From a virus (taxonomy: Duplodnaviria; Heunggongvirae; Uroviricota; Caudoviricetes), in the IMG/VR virus record IMGVR_UViG_2606217106_000014, positions 1 to 6,466 of that record: 6,466 bases of DNA. One strand, 5' to 3'. Made by a program: the position numbers and the translations under genes. This document shows positions 1 through 6,466 of the stretch, piece after piece (the first letter of the stretch is position 1; each line of letters starts with the position of its first letter). The notes beneath the pieces are model-generated. The model ran no database searches. It was not told where the DNA came from and worked only from the letters and a program-made list of their open reading frames with translations.

Positions 1-328
1 CACAAGCAACTGATAATGCCCCCGGAGCAGGAGCATCTGTAGCACAGCGCGGGGTGTCGATAAGTTCCACTGGAACCAGAGTCGGAGAGGCCGGAAAAGA
101 TTGTGATACTGTAGGGCCTACAATAGTTGGAGGCATTCTACGAGAAATACGTCCTTCTCTTTGCCAGAGGCGTAGCCATTTAAAAATCAGGTTGTTATCA
201 ACGCCATGTTCCCGGGCCAGTTGTGCAACATTGGCATTTGGTTTCGAAGCCAGTTCAACCATATGAAGTTTAAATTCATTAGAAAATATCCGGCGGGTTC
301 CGGAGCGCCAGTCTGTAGGTTTATCCAT
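1..328 (-). CDS. IS transposase OrfA-like helix-turn-helix protein, N-terminal part (gene continues past window start)
   Basis: Not in the ORF track because it has no stop in the window. Reverse-strand translation from ATG (complement of 326-328) gives MDKPTDWRSGTRRIFSNEFKLHMVELASKPNANVAQLAREHGVDNNLIFKWLRLWQREGR..., open to position 1. The pattern FSxEFK...VAQLAREHGV..NLIFKWLR is typical of IS OrfA HTH domains. GGAG lies 8 nt upstream on the minus strand. Confidence 0.6.
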   Translation of the reverse strand, partial: MDKPTDWRSGTRRIFSNEFKLHMVELASKPNANVAQLAREHGVDNNLIFKWLRLWQREGRISRRMPPTIVGPTVSQSFPASPTLVPVELIDTPRCATDAPAPGALSVAC

Positions 329-473: not shown

Positions 474-1520
474 GTGCGGGTATTACTTCGACCTGTTCTG
501 GTACCGGAACTCGGGCTGGTGATCGTTAAGCCGGGCCGTGAATCCATGCCGGTATTCCACAATACCCGGGTACTGGTGGAGCCGGAACCGAAAAGCATGC
601 GTAATCTGCCGTCCGGGGTCGTTCCTGCCGTTCGCCAGCCGCTGGCGGAGGATAAATCATTACTGCCATTTTTCAGCGACGAACGAGTGATTCGTGCTGC
701 TGGTGGCGCTGGCGCATTGTCTGACTGGTTACTGCGCCATGTTAAATCCTGCCAGTGGCCACACGGCGATTATCACCACAGTGAAACCGTCATTCACCGT
801 TATGGTACCGGCGCAATGGTGTTGTGCTGGCACTGCGACAACCAGCTGCGCGACCAGACCTCCGAATCACTCGGGCAACTTGCTCACCAAAACCTGTCTG
901 CATGGATGATTGACGTCATACGCCATGCAATGAATGGCTCGCAGGAACGGGAATTATCGCTGGCTGAATTATCCTGGTGGGCGGTCCGCAATCAGGTGGC
1001 GGACGCGCTACCGGAAGCGGTATTACGTCGTTCGCTGGGGTTGCGTGCGGAAAAAATCCGCTCAATGTACCGTGAAAGCGACATCGTACCGGGAGAGCAG
1101 ACCGCCACCAGCATACTGAAGCAGCGCACAAAAAATCTTGCGCCGCTGCCTCACGCCCACCAGCAAACCCCGCCACAGGAAAAGACGGTGGTCAGCATTG
1201 CTGTTGATCCGGAGTCTCCGGAATCTTTAATGAAGCGACCTAAACGTCGCCGTTGGGTAAATGAGAAATATACGCGCTGGGTAAAGACACAGCCGTGTGC
1301 GTGTTGTGGTAAGCCAGCCGACGATCCCCATCACCTGATTGGTCATGGTCAGGGCGGAATAGGGACAAAAGCCCACGATATTTTCACGCTACCGTTGTGT
1401 CGGGAGCATCACAACGAACTTCATGCTGATCCGCTGGCATTTGAAGAAAAGCATGGTTCCCAGATTGATTTAATTTTTCGTTTTCTTGATCGCGCCTTTG
1501 CAACCGGCGTGCTCGGGTAA
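474..1520 (+). CDS. DUF968-family prophage protein (YdfU-like) with C-terminal Cys/His HNH-like motif
   Basis: 348-aa ORF with GTG start preceded by GGAGG (465-469). C-terminus CACCGKPADDPHHLIGHGQGGIGTKAHDIFTLPLCREHHNELH has CxxC...HH...C..HH..H spacing resembling an HNH/zinc-finger nuclease fold. Position immediately upstream of rusA and Q matches lambdoid nin regions. Confidence 0.8.
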   Translation: MRVLLRPVLVPELGLVIVKPGRESMPVFHNTRVLVEPEPKSMRNLPSGVVPAVRQPLAEDKSLLPFFSDERVIRAAGGAGALSDWLLRHVKSCQWPHGDYHHSETVIHRYGTGAMVLCWHCDNQLRDQTSESLGQLAHQNLSAWMIDVIRHAMNGSQERELSLAELSWWAVRNQVADALPEAVLRRSLGLRAEKIRSMYRESDIVPGEQTATSILKQRTKNLAPLPHAHQQTPPQEKTVVSIAVDPESPESLMKRPKRRRWVNEKYTRWVKTQPCACCGKPADDPHHLIGHGQGGIGTKAHDIFTLPLCREHHNELHADPLAFEEKHGSQIDLIFRFLDRAFATGVLG

Positions 1521-1532
1521 AAGAGGTTACTG

Positions 1533-1907
1533 ATGCGTATAGAGTTTGTTTTGCCTTACCCGCCGACGGTGAACACCTACTGGCGTCGTCGTGGCAGCAC
1601 ATATTTTGTATCAAAAGCCGGTGAGCGTTATCGCCGGGATGTGGCACTTATTGTCCGCCAGCAGCGGCTGAAATTAAACCTGTCCGGAAGGCTGGCAATA
1701 AAAATTACTGCAGAGCCACCGGATAAGCGCCGTCGTGACCTGGACAATATTCTGAAAGCACCACTGGATGCACTGACGCATGCGGGGCTTCTCATAGACG
1801 ACGAGCAGTTTGATGAAATCAATATTGTGCGCGGTCAGGTCGTTCCCGGTGGGCGGTTGGGCGTGAAAATTTACGAAATAATGCATGACGGGCAGGTCAA
1901 AAAATGA
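1533..1907 (+). CDS. rusA: RusA-family Holliday junction resolvase (crossover junction endodeoxyribonuclease)
   Basis: 124-aa ORF with RBS AAGAGG (1521-1526). PPDKRRRDLDNILKAPLDALTHAGLLIDDEQ matches the RusA catalytic core of E. coli RusA ([30 protein letters not shown]), as recalled. Confidence 0.9.
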   Translation: MRIEFVLPYPPTVNTYWRRRGSTYFVSKAGERYRRDVALIVRQQRLKLNLSGRLAIKITAEPPDKRRRDLDNILKAPLDALTHAGLLIDDEQFDEINIVRGQVVPGGRLGVKIYEIMHDGQVKK

Positions 1908-2725
1908 AGCTGGAAGATTTACCGAAATACTATTCCCCGAAATCGCCTGGCCTGACCGATGCGTCCGCCTCGACATCAAAAGATGCGCTGAGTATCACTG
2001 ATGTGATGGCCGCGCAGGGCATGACACAAAATCGGGCTGAGATGGGTTTTTCTGCGTTCCTTAGGAAAATGGGCATTAGTATGAATGACAGAGAGCGGGC
2101 AACAGAATTGCTGACAGAATATGCACTCAGTCGGTGTGATCGCGTGGCGGCGTTAAGAAAACTCCCGGCAGAAATAAAACCGGTAGTGATGCGCATTATG
2201 GCTTCGTACGCTTTTGAGGATTATGCCCGCAGCGCAGCGAGTAAAAAGCAGTGCCCTTGTTGCTATGGGGAAAAATTTATTGAAAGCGTAGTTTTTACAA
2301 ACAAGGTCCAGTATCCGGATGGTAAGCCGCCGGTATGGGCAAAGTGTACGAAAGGTGTGTATCCGTCTTACTGGGAAGAATGGAAAAAAGTCAGGGAGGT
2401 GGTAAAAGTTGCCTGTCCGGAGTGTGGCGGAAAGGGTGAGGTTTCCACCGCCTGTAAGGATTGCCGTGGGCGTGGTGTCGCCATTCATCGTGAAGAGTCG
2501 GTAAAACGTGGTATGCCTGTTATCAGAGACTGCCAGCGTTGTGGTGGTCGTGGCTGTGAAAGACTACCATCAACGGAGGCATTTAATGCCATATGCAAAG
2601 TGACGAGTGCTATCACGCTTGATACGTGGAAAAAATCAGTGAAACGCTTTTACGATACGTTGGTGGTTCGGTTTGACATTGAAGAGGCATGGGCGGAGCG
2701 GCAGTTAAAGAGGGTAACGCGATAG
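1904..2725 (+). CDS. Q: Lambda-family late antiterminator Q with expanded CxxC zinc-binding region
   Basis: 273 aa. N-terminus (YYSPKSPGLTDASASTSKDALSITDVMAAQGM) and C-terminus (TWKKSVKRFYDTLVV...RVTR) align by eye with lambda Q. Four CxxC motifs, three of them CxxCxGxG (CPECGGKG, CKDCRGRG, CQRCGGRG). ATG overlaps the rusA stop (ATGA at 1904-1907). Confidence 0.85.
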   Translation: MKLEDLPKYYSPKSPGLTDASASTSKDALSITDVMAAQGMTQNRAEMGFSAFLRKMGISMNDRERATELLTEYALSRCDRVAALRKLPAEIKPVVMRIMASYAFEDYARSAASKKQCPCCYGEKFIESVVFTNKVQYPDGKPPVWAKCTKGVYPSYWEEWKKVREVVKVACPECGGKGEVSTACKDCRGRGVAIHREESVKRGMPVIRDCQRCGGRGCERLPSTEAFNAICKVTSAITLDTWKKSVKRFYDTLVVRFDIEEAWAERQLKRVTR

Positions 2726-2806: not shown

Positions 2807-2831
2807 CCCCGCCGCCTGGCGGGTTTTTTTA
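2807..2831 (+). terminator. tR'-like intrinsic terminator
   Basis: Stem CCCGCC (2808-2813) / GGCGGG (2818-2823), loop GCCT, then T7 (2824-2830). Predicts a short pR' transcript of about 65 nt. Confidence 0.75.
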
Positions 2832-2952
2832 TGACTGAAATCGCGTCAGTACAGTAAACGCGCTGGTGGCGGTGAATACCTGTCTTTCAGCTTGCTGGCT
2901 TTTTCGACAAGAGTTATTGGTGTGTCACGTTAACCGGAAAAGGGAAAAAGAC

Positions 2953-3150
2953 ATGCTAAAACAGCAGGATATGACAGAAACCGCCAGAGTAGTGTTTAAT
3001 GAATTAAGCGTTACCGAACCGGCGACAGTCGGGGAGATTGCACAGAATACTTACCTTTCACGCGAACGCTGCCAGTTAATACTGACCCAGCTGGTTATGG
3101 CGGGTCTGGCAGACTATCAGTTCGGTTGTTACAGACGCCTTCCGCAGTGA
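2953..3150 (+). CDS. Small hypothetical protein (65 aa), possible winged-helix DNA-binding protein
   Basis: ATG at 2953 preceded by AAAAGGGAAAAAGAC. Translation MLKQQDMTETARVVFNELSVTEPATVGEIAQNTYLSRERCQLILTQLVMAGLADYQ has an HTH-like segment (TVGEIAQNTYLSRERCQLIL). The track's upstream start at 2866 has no RBS. Function unknown. Confidence 0.45.
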   Translation: MLKQQDMTETARVVFNELSVTEPATVGEIAQNTYLSRERCQLILTQLVMAGLADYQFGCYRRLPQ

Positions 3151-3160
3151 AGGCTTTTTT
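3137..3160 (+). terminator. Intrinsic terminator overlapping the stop codon of the small ORF
   Basis: Stem GCCTTC (3137-3142) / GAAGGC (3149-3154), loop CGCAGT, then T6 (3155-3160) and ATTT. Confidence 0.65.
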
Positions 3161-3177
3161 ATTTGTGGTAAATGGGC

Positions 3178-3208
3178 GGCTGGTGGGTGTTAGGGGCACC
3201 CACCAGCC
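3178..3208. promoter_or_regulatory. Perfect 12-bp inverted repeat GGCTGGTGGGTG-N7-CACCCACCAGCC upstream of the methyltransferase
   Basis: Read directly. No T-run follows, so it is not a canonical terminator; could be an operator or RNA processing/stability element. It is preceded by TGTGGTAAAT (3164-3173), which duplicates the pR' -10 region (2748-2757). Confidence 0.4.
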
Positions 3209-3300
3209 ATCTGCTCATGCGTTGGGTTCACAAGCAAACCTCAGGCCCACTGCTTTGCGCAAAAGCAGAATGAGCCTATCAGAGACAGGCTTAATGATCC

Positions 3301-4350
3301 ATGCTTAATACTGTAAAAATATCCAGTTGTGAGTTAATCAACGCCGACTGCCTGGAATTTATCCGGTCGTTACCCGAAAATTCTGTTGACCTGATAGTCA
3401 CGGACCCGCCGTACTTTAAAGTGAAGCCTGAGGGCTGGGATAACCAGTGGAAGGGCGACGATGATTACCTGAAGTGGCTGGACCAGTGTCTGGCGCAGTT
3501 CTGGCGGGTGCTGAAACCTGCCGGAAGTCTTTACCTGTTCTGTGGTCATCGCCTGGCATCTGATATCGAAATCATGATGCGTGAACGCTTCAGTGTGCTG
3601 AACCATATTATCTGGGCGAAGCCGTCCGGACGCTGGAACGGATGCAACAAGGAAAGCCTGCGGGCGTATTTCCCCGCCACAGAGCGCATTCTGTTCGCGG
3701 AACATTATCAGGGGCCGTATCGTCCGAAAGATGCCGGGTATGCGGCGAAGGGCAGTGCACTGAAACAGCATGTGATGGCCCCGCTGATTTCTTACTTTCG
3801 TGATGCGCGCGCGGCCCTGGGGATAACGGCAAAACAGATTGCAGATGCCACAGGAAAGAAAAACATGGTGTCGCACTGGTTCAGTGCCAGTCAGTGGCAG
3901 TTGCCGAACGAAAGCGATTATCTGAAATTACAGGCGCTGTTTGCCCGGGTGGCAGAAGAGAAACATCAGCGCGGTGAACTGGAAAAGCCCCACCACCAGC
4001 TGGTGGATACGTATACGTCACTGAACCGGCAGTATGTGGAGCTGCAGAGTGAATATAAGCATCTGCGGCGGTATTTTGGTGTGACGGCGCAGGTGCCGTA
4101 CACGGATGTGTGGACACATAAACCGGTGCAGTTCTATCCCGGGAAACATCCGTGCGAAAAACCGGCAGAAATGCTGCAGCAGATAATCAGCGCAAGCAGT
4201 CGTCCGGGTGACCTGGTTGCAGATTTTTTTATGGGCTCAGGTTCAACGGTAAAGGCGGCTATGGCGCTTGGGCGTCGTGCAATTGGTGTTGAGCTGGAGA
4301 CCGGACGTTTTGAGCAGACAGTCAGGGAAGTTCAGGATTTAATCGTTTGA
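3301..4350 (+). CDS. Orphan DNA N6-adenine methyltransferase, beta class (N6_N4_Mtase type)
   Basis: 349 aa. Motif IV DPPY near the N-terminus (LIVTDPPYF) and motif I FxGxGS near the C-terminus (DFFMGSGSTVKAAMALGRRAIGVE), i.e. the permuted IV->TRD->I order of beta-class amino-MTases. No restriction endonuclease partner in the window. Confidence 0.9.
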   Translation: MLNTVKISSCELINADCLEFIRSLPENSVDLIVTDPPYFKVKPEGWDNQWKGDDDYLKWLDQCLAQFWRVLKPAGSLYLFCGHRLASDIEIMMRERFSVLNHIIWAKPSGRWNGCNKESLRAYFPATERILFAEHYQGPYRPKDAGYAAKGSALKQHVMAPLISYFRDARAALGITAKQIADATGKKNMVSHWFSASQWQLPNESDYLKLQALFARVAEEKHQRGELEKPHHQLVDTYTSLNRQYVELQSEYKHLRRYFGVTAQVPYTDVWTHKPVQFYPGKHPCEKPAEMLQQIISASSRPGDLVADFFMGSGSTVKAAMALGRRAIGVELETGRFEQTVREVQDLIV

Positions 4351-4399
4351 AACGGATGAGATTGCAGAATTAATTACGCACCATTATTATTCTGCTCCC

Positions 4400-4475
4400 G
4401 GCCCTTTAGCTCAGTGGTGAGAGCGAGCGACTCATAATCGCCAGGTCGCTGGTTCAAATCCAGCAAGGGCCACCA
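4400..4475 (+). tRNA. tRNA-Ile2 (anticodon CAU, ileX/ileZ-like; automated tools may call it Met)
   Basis: 76-nt cloverleaf: acceptor GGCCCTT/AAGGGCC, D-arm GCTC...GAGC, anticodon loop CTCATAA, T-arm GCTGG-TTCAAAT-CCAGC, discriminator A, encoded CCA. Near-identical in layout to E. coli ileX as recalled. Confidence 0.85.
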
Positions 4476-4482
4476 TCACATA

Positions 4483-4559
4483 CCGCCATTAGCTCATCAG
4501 GAAAGAGCGCCAGCCTTCGAAGCTGGTTGCGCGGAGTTCGGGTCCCCGAAGGCGGTCCA
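4483..4559 (+). tRNA. tRNA-Arg-like, apparent anticodon UCG, with non-canonical features
   Basis: D-arm GCTC...GAGC, anticodon stem CCAGC/GCTGG with loop CTTCGAA, T-loop TTCGGGT, 3' CCA. Acceptor CCGCCAT/AAGGCGG has one mismatch and starts with C; the T-stem has one mismatch. Boundaries +/- 2 nt. Confidence 0.6.
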
Positions 4560-4572
4560 TTATCTGTATCCT

Positions 4573-4649
4573 GCGTTGTTAGCTCAGCCGGACAGAGCAA
4601 TTGCCTTCTAAGCAATCGGTCACTGGTTCGAATACAGTAGAACGCGCCA
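4573..4649 (+). tRNA. tRNA-Arg (anticodon UCU)
   Basis: Acceptor GCGTTGT/AGAACGC (one mismatch), D-arm GCTC...GAGC, anticodon stem ATTGC/GCAAT with loop CTTCTAA, T-loop TTCGAAT, discriminator G, encoded CCA. Confidence 0.8.
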
Positions 4650-4664
4650 CACTTATTTTCCCTG

Positions 4665-4688
4665 GCTCGCTTTTGCGGGCTTTTTTTT
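4665..4688 (+). terminator. Intrinsic terminator downstream of the tRNA cluster
   Basis: Stem GCTCGC (4665-4670) / GCGGGC (4675-4680) with one G-U pair, loop TTTT, then T8 (4681-4688). Confidence 0.6.
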
Positions 4689-4900
4689 AAATGTCTCATA
4701 ATTCAGGCGGTTGACTGTTGTCTGGTTTGCGGGGAGTTTGTTAAAAGAAACTGGCATGGTGAATCCCCCTGTGCGGAGGGGCAATCAGCAACTGGTGTTT
4801 TGTCACCGACCCTTATCCTTTCTGTGCGGGTTCAGGTGCTGATACTGAACTCACCGGGAGGCACCCGGCACCATGCAATGGCACATAGCGCCACTCTCCA

Positions 4901-4925
4901 GCCCCTCTCCGGAGGGGCTTTCTTA
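4901..4925 (+). terminator. GC-rich hairpin with weak U-tract (terminator-like or RNA structural element)
   Basis: Perfect 8-bp stem AGCCCCTC (4901-4908) / GAGGGGCT (4913-4920), tetraloop TCCG, then TTCTT. Confidence 0.35.
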
Positions 4926-4930
4926 TGGAC

Positions 4931-4958
4931 AAAAAAATCCCGCGCTGGGAGACGCGGG
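4931..4958 (-). terminator. Minus-strand intrinsic terminator
   Basis: On the minus strand: stem CCCGCG (4958-4953) / CGCGGG (4944-4939), 8-nt loop, then A and T7 (4937-4931). Confidence 0.45.
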
Positions 4959-5152
4959 CGGCAAGGAATAAACAACAAAACGTGAAGTAATATTTCAGTT
5001 GGCGAATAATATCCGACAGTAATCACTCTGCGCAATAGCGCGGCCTTTTTCGTATTGCGGGCTGTTGTCTATCTTCTGCCATTGTCCTGTAACTTCCGGA
5101 CTTCAGCCCGCTCCTCATTTTACTCACAATATTATCCAGGCCGGGAGGATTC

Positions 5153-6466
5153 ATGGCATTTAAACACTATGACGTGGTCAGGGCGGCGTCGCCGTCAGAC
5201 CTTGCGGAGCGACTGACACAAAAACTGAAGGAAGGCTGGCAGCCGTTTGGCAGTCCTGTGGCTATCACGCCTTATACACTGATGCAGGCCATTGCCGCAG
5301 AGGGTGATGTGACCACGCCTGTGGTTGTGCCCGACACAGGGGCTGGTGGCTCTCCGGGAGTGGCTACCACTGAACCGGAGTATTACTACGTTATTCCCCA
5401 GGCCGGGCAGTCGAACGGTATGGCCTATGGTGAGGGGCTTCCTCTGCCGGAGACCTATGATCGCCCTGACTCCCGTATTAAGCAGCTGGCCCGTCGCAGC
5501 ACTGTGACGCCGGGTGGTGATACCTGTGCATACAATGACGTTATTCCGGCAGACCACTGTCTGCATGATGTTCAGGACATGAGCGCACTTAACCATCCTC
5601 ATGCAGACCTGAGTAAGGGCCAGTACGGGACTGTCGGTCAGGGGCTGCATATTGCCAAAAAACTGCTGCCTTATATCCCGCAGAATGCCGGGATTCTTCT
5701 GGTGCCCTGTTGCCGTGGCGGGTCTGGTTTAACCGTGGGTAATGACGGCACGTTCAGCGAAACGTCTGGCGCATCGGCAAATTCAGCCCGCTGGGGAGTG
5801 GGTAAACCGCTGTATCAGGATTTTCTCTTCCGTACAAAAGCGGCGCTGTCGAAGAACCCGAAAAACAGGCTTCTGGCCGTGGTATGGATGCAGGGGGAAA
5901 ATGATCTTGCGGACGGCAGTCAGCAGCACAGCGGCCTGTTTACCACTATGGTGCAGCAGTTCAGGGCTGATATGGCTGCATATTCTGCACAGTGTGTTGG
6001 CGGAAGTGCTGGCTCGGTGCCGTGGATTTGTGGTGACACCACGTATTACTGGAAGAATCTTAACGCCGATAAATATGAGGCGGTATATGGCGGTTACAAG
6101 GGCAGGGAAGCACAGAATATTTTCTTTGTTCCTTTTATGACGGATGAGAATGGACAGAGCACGCCAACGAATGCTCCGGCGGAAGACCCGGATATTGTGG
6201 CTGTCGGGTATTACGGTGCAGCATCCCGAACCCAGGGCAGTTTTGTTTCGACACAGCGTGACAGCCATTTCAGCTCATGGGCACGCAGGGGCGTCATTTC
6301 AGACCGTCTGGCCTCAGCTATTATGCTCCATGCAGGGCGCACGGCTGAATTGATGCGCGGGCAGACCGTGACACCACCGGATGAGAAGCCGTCACCTGAT
6401 ACACCATCAAAACCGTCCACGCCACCCGCAGACACCACGACGATGAGTACGCTATTTGCTTACCGG
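5153..6466 (+). CDS. nanS-p: NanS-p-type prophage sialate O-acetylesterase (DUF1737 N-domain + SASA/SGNH esterase domain), 5' partial - runs off window end
   Basis: Not in the ORF track because there is no stop in the window; 438 codons open from ATG 5153 (RBS GGGAGGA) to 6466. Translation MAFKHYDVVRAASPSDLAERLTQKLKEGWQPFGSPVAITPYTLMQAIAAEG... then YYYVIPQAGQSNGMAYGEG (GQSN catalytic-serine block), and a Pro/Thr-rich linker TPPDEKPSPDTPSKPSTPPADTTT near the window end. Confidence 0.85.
   Translation, partial: MAFKHYDVVRAASPSDLAERLTQKLKEGWQPFGSPVAITPYTLMQAIAAEGDVTTPVVVPDTGAGGSPGVATTEPEYYYVIPQAGQSNGMAYGEGLPLPETYDRPDSRIKQLARRSTVTPGGDTCAYNDVIPADHCLHDVQDMSALNHPHADLSKGQYGTVGQGLHIAKKLLPYIPQNAGILLVPCCRGGSGLTVGNDGTFSETSGASANSARWGVGKPLYQDFLFRTKAALSKNPKNRLLAVVWMQGENDLADGSQQHSGLFTTMVQQFRADMAAYSAQCVGGSAGSVPWICGDTTYYWKNLNADKYEAVYGGYKGREAQNIFFVPFMTDENGQSTPTNAPAEDPDIVAVGYYGAASRTQGSFVSTQRDSHFSSWARRGVISDRLASAIMLHAGRTAELMRGQTVTPPDEKPSPDTPSKPSTPPADTTTMSTLFAYR

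Follow-up and report, generated by a model that had tools for sequence, protein, structure and literature searches.

The best described relatives of the gene studied here are the NanS-p proteins of phages 933W (z1466/L0105) and phi24B (vb_24B_21/gp84). They are composed of a DUF1737 domain, a NanS-like SGNH esterase domain with GQSN and R-x-S-H blocks, and a lectin-like C-terminus, and are encoded between a tRNA/cargo site and the DUF1378/DUF826/holin genes. The chromosomal NanS protein (YjhS; structure 3pt5), in contrast, is the product of a gene in the nanC-nanM-nanS operon and consists of one domain of 326 aa, without DUF1737 or the C-terminal domain; this domain is the homologous SGNH type II fold, in which Ser19 and His301 make up the catalytic dyad and Gln18 lies in the oxyanion hole (PMC9063846). 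NanS-p proteins from Stx and non-Stx prophages show induction-dependent expression and esterase activity (PMC10462455, PMC8065619), with functional enzymes coming from non-Stx prophages as well (PMC10462455). Among these, the alleles from lambdoid prophages without stx in EDL933 and O104:H4 (Saile et al. 2016, 2018), described here as reported in reviews and in Pascal et al. 2023, are active esterases and support growth on Neu5,9Ac2 (Saile et al. 2016/2018 via PMC10462455, PMC8065619). Both the NanS-p enzyme and its presence in non-Stx prophages are therefore already known. A 2026 preprint on phi24B further reports that gp84, a member of the NanS-p family, is abundant in virions, where DUF1737 forms a hexamer on the central hexons of a T=9 podovirus capsid and binds them through an anchoring loop with a Tyr42 'tooth'.

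The DNA analysed in this study (the window, 6,466 bp) is the whole of draft contig JNRB01000130.1 from assembly GCA_000704465.1 of E. coli 2-460-02_S3_C1. It displays, in this order, the late antiterminator gene Q, terminators, a methylase gene, three tRNA genes, a terminator, an unoccupied cargo site, an sRNA pair including STnc100, and nanS-p (Table 1). Loci with identical nanS-p alleles continue 3' of the gene with DUF1378, DUF826, holin, lysozyme and spanin genes. With Q, the methylase and the tRNAs upstream in the window, and DUF1378/DUF826/holin/lysozyme downstream in these same-allele loci, NanS-p is placed in a prophage late region, at the position that it occupies in 933W and phi24B; unlike 933W, the window has no stx genes upstream of it. 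Our best explanation, which we hold with high confidence as a whole, is that positions 5153-6466 cover the first two-thirds of a nanS-p gene in the late (Q-dependent) unit of a mosaic lambdoid prophage.

Table 1. Features of the 6,466-bp window; residue numbers are those of the NanS-p product.
Feature	Position	Strand	Basis
Late antiterminator Q, 273 aa	1904..2725	+	PF03589
Strong intrinsic terminator after Q, candidate tR'	2808..2830	+	Terminator scan
N6/N4 DNA methyltransferase, 349 aa	3301..4350	+	PF01555
Three tRNA genes (CAT = ileZ/tRNA-Ile in relatives; Arg-TCG; Arg-TCT)	4400..4649	+	ARAGORN, Rfam
Intrinsic terminator GGCTCGC-TTTT-GCGGGCT plus T-run, at left edge of cargo site	4664..4688	+	Terminator scan
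Unoccupied cargo ('moron') junction	4687..4692	.	blastn breakpoints and junction alignments
sRNA STnc100 (RF02076), between cargo site and nanS-p	4725..4930	+	cmscan
Candidate convergent small RNA, terminator 4958-4939	4930..4995	-	Terminator scan
nanS-p, 5' 438 of 647 codons	5153..6466	+	ATG start, no stop, cut by contig end
DUF1737 N-terminal domain, residues 1-57	5153..5323	+	Pfam PF08410
SGNH type II/SASA catalytic esterase domain, residues 75-391	5375..6325	+	Aligned to NanS 3pt5
Codon 83, CAG (Gln)	5399..5401	+	Leu in 114/117 homologue representatives
SGNH block I G85-Q86-S87-N88 (nucleophile Ser87, oxyanion Gln86)	5405..5416	+	Alignment to NanS
SGNH block IV R369-D370-S371-H372 (catalytic His372)	6257..6268	+	Alignment to NanS
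Pro/Thr/Ser-rich linker 2 and first residues of C-terminal lectin-like domain	6326..6466	+	Alignment to 933W NanS-p

The earlier note on this DNA had proposed a NanS-p-type esterase, and the domain content agrees. Matches to PF08410 (DUF1737; residues 3-50, E 7e-16, 58 bits, cut-off 24) and to SASA (residues 149-278, E 4e-12) both exceed the Pfam curated cut-offs, and the ORF matches PHROG 143 (E 2e-240). The fold of the esterase domain is fixed by a solved homologue, since residues 71-391 match the NanS/YjhS structure 3pt5 at E 1e-113. GQSN aligns with the catalytic serine as the note had assumed: G85-Q86-S87-N88 pairs column by column with G17-Q18-S19-N20 of NanS, so that Ser87 corresponds to Ser19, and R369-D370-S371-H372 pairs with R298-S299-S300-H301. 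RDSH is the commoner form of block IV (67 RDSHFS versus 53 RASHFS among the homologue representatives). The C-terminal domain lies beyond the contig end; the full-length, near-identical allele P0009 matches the NanS-p C-terminal structure 6yp6 over residues 432-646 (E 1e-98), and the 647-aa proteins P0001-P0003, to which the 438-aa product is identical along its full length, carry PF20350 (C-terminal jelly-roll, DUF6645). No NCBIfam model matches the esterase, which leaves it without an equivalog-level name.

Taken alone, the close match between residues 71-391 and NanS 3pt5 could point to a copy of chromosomal nanS (yjhS). Such an origin is refuted by the fusion of DUF1737 and a C-terminal domain to the esterase, by a genomic context of Q, tRNAs and lysis genes in place of nanC-nanM-nanS, and by the identity comparison, in which the catalytic domain shows 55% identity to K-12 NanS versus 71% to 933W/phi24B NanS-p; the probability left to it is practically nil, and the closest kin are prophage NanS-p proteins, as the note had expected. 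Identity to 933W/phi24B drops to 41% over linker 2 and the start of the C-terminal domain, and the best protein identity among 351 sequenced phage records is 72.7%.

The note had also described the product as a 438-aa fragment. The open frame does run off the end of the window, but because the window is an entire contig this end is an assembly artefact, and the length of the ORF reflects an assembly break and no biological truncation. Contig JNRD01000117.1 of a sibling assembly is 100% identical to window positions 4976-6466 (1,491 nt), runs on into a complete 647-aa gene, passes the nanS-p stop codon and reaches the lysis genes. The 3' third of the gene lies outside the window, and its intactness in this strain is judged from these relatives. 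An alternative is that nanS-p is non-functional in this strain, either interrupted past the contig end or inactivated by a substitution at residue 83. The contig stops inside the gene, IS insertions in nanS-p have been recorded in Stx2a phages (PMC10462455), a UTI89 prophage with the same backbone keeps a DUF1737 stub only, and Gln83, four residues before the nucleophile, is rare (3 of the 117 representatives); Leu83Gln could impair folding or activity of this allele. However, the last 141 nt are 100% identical to intact alleles and contain no IS end, the sibling contig reaches a complete gene, and the catalytic blocks are intact. Gln83 is also present in P0001-P0003, which excludes a read error, and this form occurs on at least nine contigs, one of them a closed chromosome. 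We therefore consider a defective gene quite improbable, and an intact 647-aa nanS-p is preferred.

Upstream of nanS-p, Q belongs to a rare type that is also found in the Stx2a prophages 00-3076 and Stx2_EH1910, as well as in UTI89 and ECO2947. The candidate tR' that follows it is a module boundary, since homology to Stx2_95 and PhiR5_1 begins at 2808/2809; the methyltransferase gene beyond it has 95.4% DNA identity to that of Stx2_95. At the position of the tRNA genes, 933W is annotated with ileZ-argN-argO, and the terminator next to them is homologous to a 933W element annotated 'terminator upstream of the stx genes'. The terminator scan found nine intrinsic terminators in the window, versus 3.4 +/- 1.8 in shuffled sequence. 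STnc100 scores 143.2 bits versus a gathering score of 47 (E 1e-32) and covers model positions 1-206 of 206, its terminator being the hairpin at 4900-4919. The putative minus-strand RNA facing it recurs almost unchanged in Stx2_95, strain 9000 and PhiR5_1 and has a modest fold z-score of -2.2; the two are laid out like the pairs of convergent sRNAs described by Tree et al. 2014.

The note's empty stx slot is real, and it is precise. By blastn, stx2AB of Stx2_95, 933W and Stx2_EH1910 is placed exactly between window positions 4687 and 4692, and the TerB/DUF3927 cassette of other prophages is inserted at the same point (4687 / 4688-4692). Where Stx2_95 has 1,335 bp the window has 4 nt, and the distance from the tRNAs to the esterase gene is 503 nt versus approximately 1.8 kb in 933W. 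In TerB/DUF3927 prophages of stx-less E. coli (loci L009-L016, and in strains like 83972 too), nanS-p is 99.5-100% identical to that of the window, the tRNA-terminator segment is 94-98% identical and the boundaries of the cargo site are the same, but a 758-bp TerB/DUF3927 cassette is found where the window has nothing, and in the intergenic stretch ahead of nanS-p identity falls to about 82%. How the lambdoid late region is put together is clearly visible from this comparison: Q, the tRNAs, a terminator, the sRNA pair, nanS-p and the lysis genes form a conserved frame that encloses a single, exactly placed cargo site.

The empty state of this site is also found in loci L020-L023, and in diverged surroundings: the flanks have 79% identity in strain 9000 and 99% in a 4.96-Mb chromosome. 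Strain 9000, listed alongside O157:H7 strains, provides the closest non-Stx prophage locus of the kind studied by Saile et al. among those compared here; in it the junction is likewise empty, an esterase gene follows, and DNA identity is approximately 79%. A megablast search recovered nanS-p in 1,118 of 5,426 complete E. coli genomes, a count in which diverged alleles are under-represented and which is not intersectable with the list of stx genomes; for these reasons a junction probe was used instead. The probe detected the empty junction in 937 of the 5,426 genomes (about 17%), including UTI89, CE10 and non-Stx prophages of O157:H7, while stx2AB is present in 602. Because the junction occurs with flanks as diverged as 79%, and in 937 genomes versus 602 with stx2, we conclude that absence of cargo is an old and widespread condition, and not the result of a recent loss.

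These results bear on the main proposal of the earlier note, namely that the gene had been retained despite the absence of stx and marks a prophage of the Stx-phage lineage. Such a history, in which stxAB was deleted from a former Stx phage while nanS-p was kept as a linked virulence gene, or in which the prophage is poised to regain the toxin, draws on the left side of the locus: the methylase-tRNA segment shares 92-95% identity with Stx2a phages, and the whole ydfU-rusA-Q(273 aa)-methylase-tRNA backbone recurs in Stx2_EH1910 at 92% identity. The stx and TerB cassettes also have about 11 nt in common after the T-run at their left end that are missing from the window, and T-runs flank the TerB cassette, which makes a T-run-mediated deletion conceivable; this difference is compatible with a past deletion but too small to decide between loss and a site that was never occupied. 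Homologous flanks would moreover let the locus gain stx if it recombined with an Stx phage entering the cell. However, the left flank is as close or closer to the stx-less TerB loci, and on the right side the window nanS-p has approximately 70% DNA identity to Stx-phage alleles, versus 99.5-100% to alleles from stx-less prophages whose Q genes fall into three families and whose head modules are of two unrelated kinds. When the window was searched for an stx remnant with Stx2A/B by tblastn and with the stx region of 933W by blastn, chance matches only were returned (E >= 0.3 with tblastn), an absence that applies to this single 6,466-bp contig of the strain. 'Retained' presumes a loss that has left neither scar nor remnant at a site that may alternatively hold TerB/DUF3927, and the age and frequency of the empty junction speak against it as well. 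A former Stx phage is accordingly an improbable source. Since the allele is common to stx-less prophages and the junction is empty in 937 genomes, nanS-p is, on the strength of these sequence comparisons, a mosaic late-region gene and no marker of the Stx lineage.

For this late-region gene, a course of expression and action may be proposed. Its position suggests that nanS-p is most likely transcribed from pR', once Q carries RNA polymerase through the at least five terminator-like hairpins upstream; a simple scan found no + strand sigma-70 promoter between the cargo site and nanS-p, which is weak evidence. By analogy with other nanS-p alleles, which are expressed after mitomycin C or norfloxacin, expression would follow induction. 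Given 71% identity to tested alleles and intact catalytic blocks, Ser87 and His372 would strip 9-O-acetyl groups from Neu5,9Ac2 and mucin sialoglycans. The de-acetylated sialic acid could then feed the nan pathway of the host; alternatively, if tethered to the capsid via DUF1737 as reported for phi24B, NanS-p would work in mucus on behalf of the virion. The cargo site is simply unoccupied here, with nanS-p as part of the conserved frame around it and not as the companion of a toxin.

That NanS-p is mainly a virion protein, anchored to hexons by DUF1737, then processed, and aiding the binding or penetration of mucus and surface glycans, with lysogen growth as a secondary benefit, is a possibility that we regard as less probable but worth weighing. 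In addition to the phi24B preprint, it agrees with the location of nanS-p in the late operon beside lysis and head genes at every locus examined, with the survival at this site of DUF1737 as a separate gene or a stub (PHROG 2036, vB_EcoS-640R1, UTI89), and with the lectin-like C-terminal domain. Against it, lysogen growth on Neu5,9Ac2 has been reported to depend on nanS-p alleles (PMC8065619), and the preprint concerns a podovirus head, as in 933W and phi24B, whereas the relatives of the window carry the same 647-aa allele in prophages whose heads are either lambda-type (gpD/gpE) or HK97-type (S78-capsid fusion), so that capsid binding is not assured. The window DUF1737, with 64% identity to residues 1-57 of gp84, has a loop that is three residues shorter around the reported Tyr42 anchor, with a Tyr at 41; PhiR5_1, an isolated phage of lambda morphotype, has the same DUF1737 variant. 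The virion and host-nutrition roles are not mutually exclusive. A DUF1737-anchored esterase that decorates virions independently of head type is a still more doubtful proposition. If DUF1737 did bind hexon pores on all head types, nanS-p would amount to a mobile module that equips the capsid with a mucus enzyme and passes between unrelated heads; if it binds none of these capsids, phi24B would be a special case and DUF1737 would have another role in these prophages.

The analysis corrects the interpretation of such loci: nanS-p beside an empty stx site should not be taken as the footprint of a Shiga toxin phage or as a marker of the risk of toxin acquisition. The empty junction is found in about one sixth of complete E. 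coli genomes, uropathogenic and meningitis strains included, the cargo site can be empty or carry either stx or TerB/DUF3927, and the esterase allele of the window circulates among stx-less prophages. The biological question that the locus touches is whether NanS-p serves the lysogen, through sialic acid nutrition, or the virion, through decoration of the capsid.

The open frame at the right end of the window encodes a NanS-p-type esterase, as the earlier note had proposed; that note's interpretation is borne out in part. The ATG comes six bases past the end of a GGGAGG Shine-Dalgarno-like motif (5143-5148), and both Pfam domains of the product scored above the curated cut-offs. Residues 71-391 hit 3pt5, a solved structure of E. 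coli NanS/YjhS, with E 1e-113, and in a multiple alignment NanS G17-Q18-S19-N20 and R298-S299-S300-H301 lie under G85-Q86-S87-N88 and R369-D370-S371-H372, so that the GQSN block falls on the catalytic serine; in NanS, Ser19 and His301 are catalytic and Gln18 helps to form the oxyanion hole (PMC9063846). The catalytic domain is nearer to the NanS-p enzymes characterised from 933W and phi24B (71% identity) than to the chromosomal NanS of K-12 (55%), from which NanS-p also differs by the fused DUF1737, a prophage hallmark. The protein belongs to an already known family in a known position. Codon 83 (5399-5401), four residues ahead of the nucleophile in strand beta-1, encodes Gln, while 114 of the 117 homologue representatives have Leu; this is a real variant, since it recurs in the database homologues P0001-P0003, on at least nine contigs, and it is a caveat on the predicted activity of this allele.

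Features of the window, with protein domains given in nanS-p residues
Feature	Position	Strand	Remarks
IS66-family accessory TnpA gene fragment	1-328	-	left contig end; NCBIfam matches under cut-off, gene being partial
DUF968/YdfU	474-1520		
RusA	1533-1907		
Q antiterminator	1904-2725		273 aa
Candidate tR'	2808-2830	+	strong GC hairpin and T7, ~85 nt downstream of Q
65-aa ORF	between Q and methyltransferase		
N6/N4 methyltransferase	3301-4350		
Three tRNAs	4400-4649		
Intrinsic terminator	4664-4688		T-run is left edge of cargo site
STnc100 sRNA (RF02076)	4725-4930	+	full length; Rfam, 143 bits vs gathering score 47, E 1e-32
Candidate convergent sRNA	~4930-4995	-	hairpin and T-run terminator 4958-4939, ~40-60 conserved nt before it
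Terminator-like hairpins, among nine	2808-2823, 3137-3154, 4664-4681, 4900-4919, 5028-5043		
nanS-p, 5' part	5153-6466	+	ATG start, open for 438 codons to window end
DUF1737	residues 3-50		Pfam
SASA (sialic-acid-specific acetylesterase)	residues 149-278		Pfam

The truncation of nanS-p is an assembly artefact. The window is the entire 6,466-bp contig JNRB01000130.1 of the draft assembly GCA_000704465.1 (E. coli 2-460-02_S3_C1), and its right end lies inside a continuous nanS-p: its last 141 nt match intact alleles at 100% identity and hold no IS terminus. Over the 438 residues that the window encodes, P0001-P0003 (n=3, 647 aa) show no difference from it, and the sibling-assembly contig JNRD01000117.1, 100% identical over window 4976-6466, carries the gene to its end, followed by DUF1378, DUF826, holin and lysozyme genes. 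P0009, a near-identical protein of full length, also hits 6yp6, the solved C-terminal domain of NanS-p (E 1e-98). At the left end, homology to other prophages starts only at base 413, past window 1-328 (-) and 329-412, which places an IS directly upstream of ydfU that probably broke the assembly. Because the window is a draft contig, the stx status of the strain elsewhere is not readable from it.

The stx slot, described as empty in the earlier note, is real and precisely vacant. Along the Stx2a phage Stx2_95, the alignment of window 2809-4687 stops 53 nt short of stx2A and resumes at window 4692, 41 nt past stx2B, so that 4 nt stand for 1,335 bp. Breakpoints are the same in 933W and in Stx2_EH1910, whose ydfU-rusA-Q-methylase-tRNA backbone corresponds throughout to that of the window (92% identity); tblastn of the window with Stx2A/B gave nothing better than E 0.3, and the site is bounded on its left by the T-run of a terminator whose 933W counterpart bears the annotation 'terminator upstream of the stx genes'. 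Further upstream, homology to Stx2_95 and to PhiR5_1, an stx-less phage isolate of lambda morphotype, starts exactly at the candidate tR' (2808/2809), and the Q-pR'-qut unit therefore appears to be swapped as a block ending at this terminator. The first tRNA (4400-4475) was called as Met (anticodon CAT) by ARAGORN, its homologue being annotated ileZ/tRNA-Ile in 933W and RefSeq genomes; we take it to be a lysidine-modified AUA reader, which together with two Arg tRNAs forms the usual rare-codon set of such modules.

The spacer between this site and nanS-p, previously taken as empty, holds a full-length STnc100, whose terminator is the hairpin 4900-4919. It faces a candidate minus-strand RNA with near-identical copies in Stx2_95, strain 9000 and PhiR5_1, while 933W has another sequence of the same design. 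The arrangement fits the position of the convergent sRNA pair or anti-sRNA (AgvB/AsxR class) of Tree et al. 2014, although the 5' part of the candidate (UUUUGUUGUUUAUU) is unlike the CACAACA motif of AgvB.

The cargo site is not specific to stx, the toxin being one of several alternative inserts in a late-region frame. In eight loci carrying P0009, precisely this interval (after window 4687, before window 4684-4692) is filled by a TerB/DUF3927 cassette of 758 bp. The unoccupied junction, GCGGGC(C)-T7-9-AAATGTCTCA, recurs in four different settings: a 4.96-Mb chromosome (L021, 99.2% identity to window 4383-6466); two further contigs (L022 and L023, the latter with the layout of L021); a non-Stx prophage of strain 9000, listed alongside O157:H7 strains, with flanks diverged to 79%; and, with about 30 extra nucleotides, E. 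coli ECO2947. Of 5,426 complete E. coli genomes, 937 contain a match covering at least 80% of a 121-nt probe that spans the junction (a single contiguous piece in every match listed), against 602 genomes with stx2AB. About a sixth of the complete genomes share the unoccupied configuration, among them UPEC UTI89, NMEC CE10, one APEC strain and strains of O157:H7 and O111:H8. In UTI89 (NZ_CP062985.1), the empty junction goes with the same YdfU-RusA-Q(273 aa)-methylase-tRNA backbone, but the holin gene is preceded by a DUF1737 stub alone (5996-6214 of locus L027, a pseudogene by annotation); DUF1737 can persist where the esterase, which is not always retained, is missing. Phage vB_EcoS-640R1 matches nanS-p residues 1-88 only.

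Membership of the Stx-phage lineage, which the earlier note had drawn from nanS-p, did not survive the comparison. The window allele is 99.5-100% identical to those of stx-less prophages and ~70% to Stx-phage alleles, with a best tblastn identity of at most 72.7% among 351 phage records with a homologue, in a collection of mostly deliberately sequenced Stx phages. Nearest relatives differ from segment to segment, which makes the window a patchwork: ydfU-rusA-Q matches a contig of another assembly (L004, GCA_000627215.1) at 99.9-100%, the methylase is nearest to Stx2_95 (95.4%), the tRNA-terminator segment to the TerB loci (97.6%) and a 460-nt intergenic stretch to PhiR5_1 (97%), whose DUF1737 variant is identical. 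An identical or near-identical 647-aa allele occurs in L009-L016 and L021-L023 (10001-11944 in each locus), the same 647-aa allele being found with three Q families (PF03589, PF06323, PF06530) and beside two unrelated head modules, either lambda-type (Nu1/gpA/gpW/portal/gpC/gpD/gpE) or HK97-type (TerL/S78-capsid fusion). The literature likewise agrees that nanS-p is no Stx-lineage marker.

The direction of the event at the cargo site is not settled by the sequence. Past deletion of stx from this prophage would be consistent with the ~11 nt that open both the stx and the TerB cassette directly behind the T-run of the terminator (GTATCCGCGCC / ATATCTGCGCC) and are missing from the window, and with the T-runs on both sides of the TerB cassette (L009 8781-9538, against window 4687/4688), which ends in TTTTT before AAAT and hints that short T-runs may mediate cassette gain or loss. 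A recent loss, however, is opposed by the lack of a scar at the junction, by a right-hand flank without a close Stx-phage relative, and by conservation of the empty junction between loci otherwise ~20% diverged; an unoccupied site in a prophage without recent Stx ancestry is rated well above it. The flank identity (92-95% over ~1.9-3.5 kb on the left, ~70-80% on the right) makes it plausible that an incoming Stx phage could donate stx through homologous recombination, a potential that hundreds of other E. coli prophages have in equal measure.

Between Q and nanS-p, nine terminator-like hairpins were found, versus 3.4 +/- 1.8 in shuffles (both strands). Transcription of nanS-p from pR' would occur only when Q-modified polymerase gets past the terminators, and the product would be set free by lysing or spontaneously induced cells; with its Ser87/His372 dyad it would then strip 9-O-acetyl groups from Neu5,9Ac2, the C-terminal lectin-like domain presumably directing the enzyme to glycans. 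Other alleles are co-induced with stx2a by mitomycin C or norfloxacin (PMC10462455, PMC8065619). A 2026 preprint reports gp84, the homologue in phi24B, as abundant in virions, with its DUF1737 seated as a hexamer on central hexons of the capsid and split from the esterase by proteolysis. If this result generalises, the gene would be a phage structural accessory and the label 'virulence-associated gene' misleading. The window DUF1737 is 64% identical to that of gp84, its loop near the reported Tyr42 anchor being shorter by three residues, and, unlike in phi24B, the allele occurs with non-podovirus heads, so that the capsid-anchor role need not be general. Linkage of an identical or near-identical allele to both lambda-type and HK97-type head modules, and to three Q families, bears on how general capsid anchoring by DUF1737 may be.
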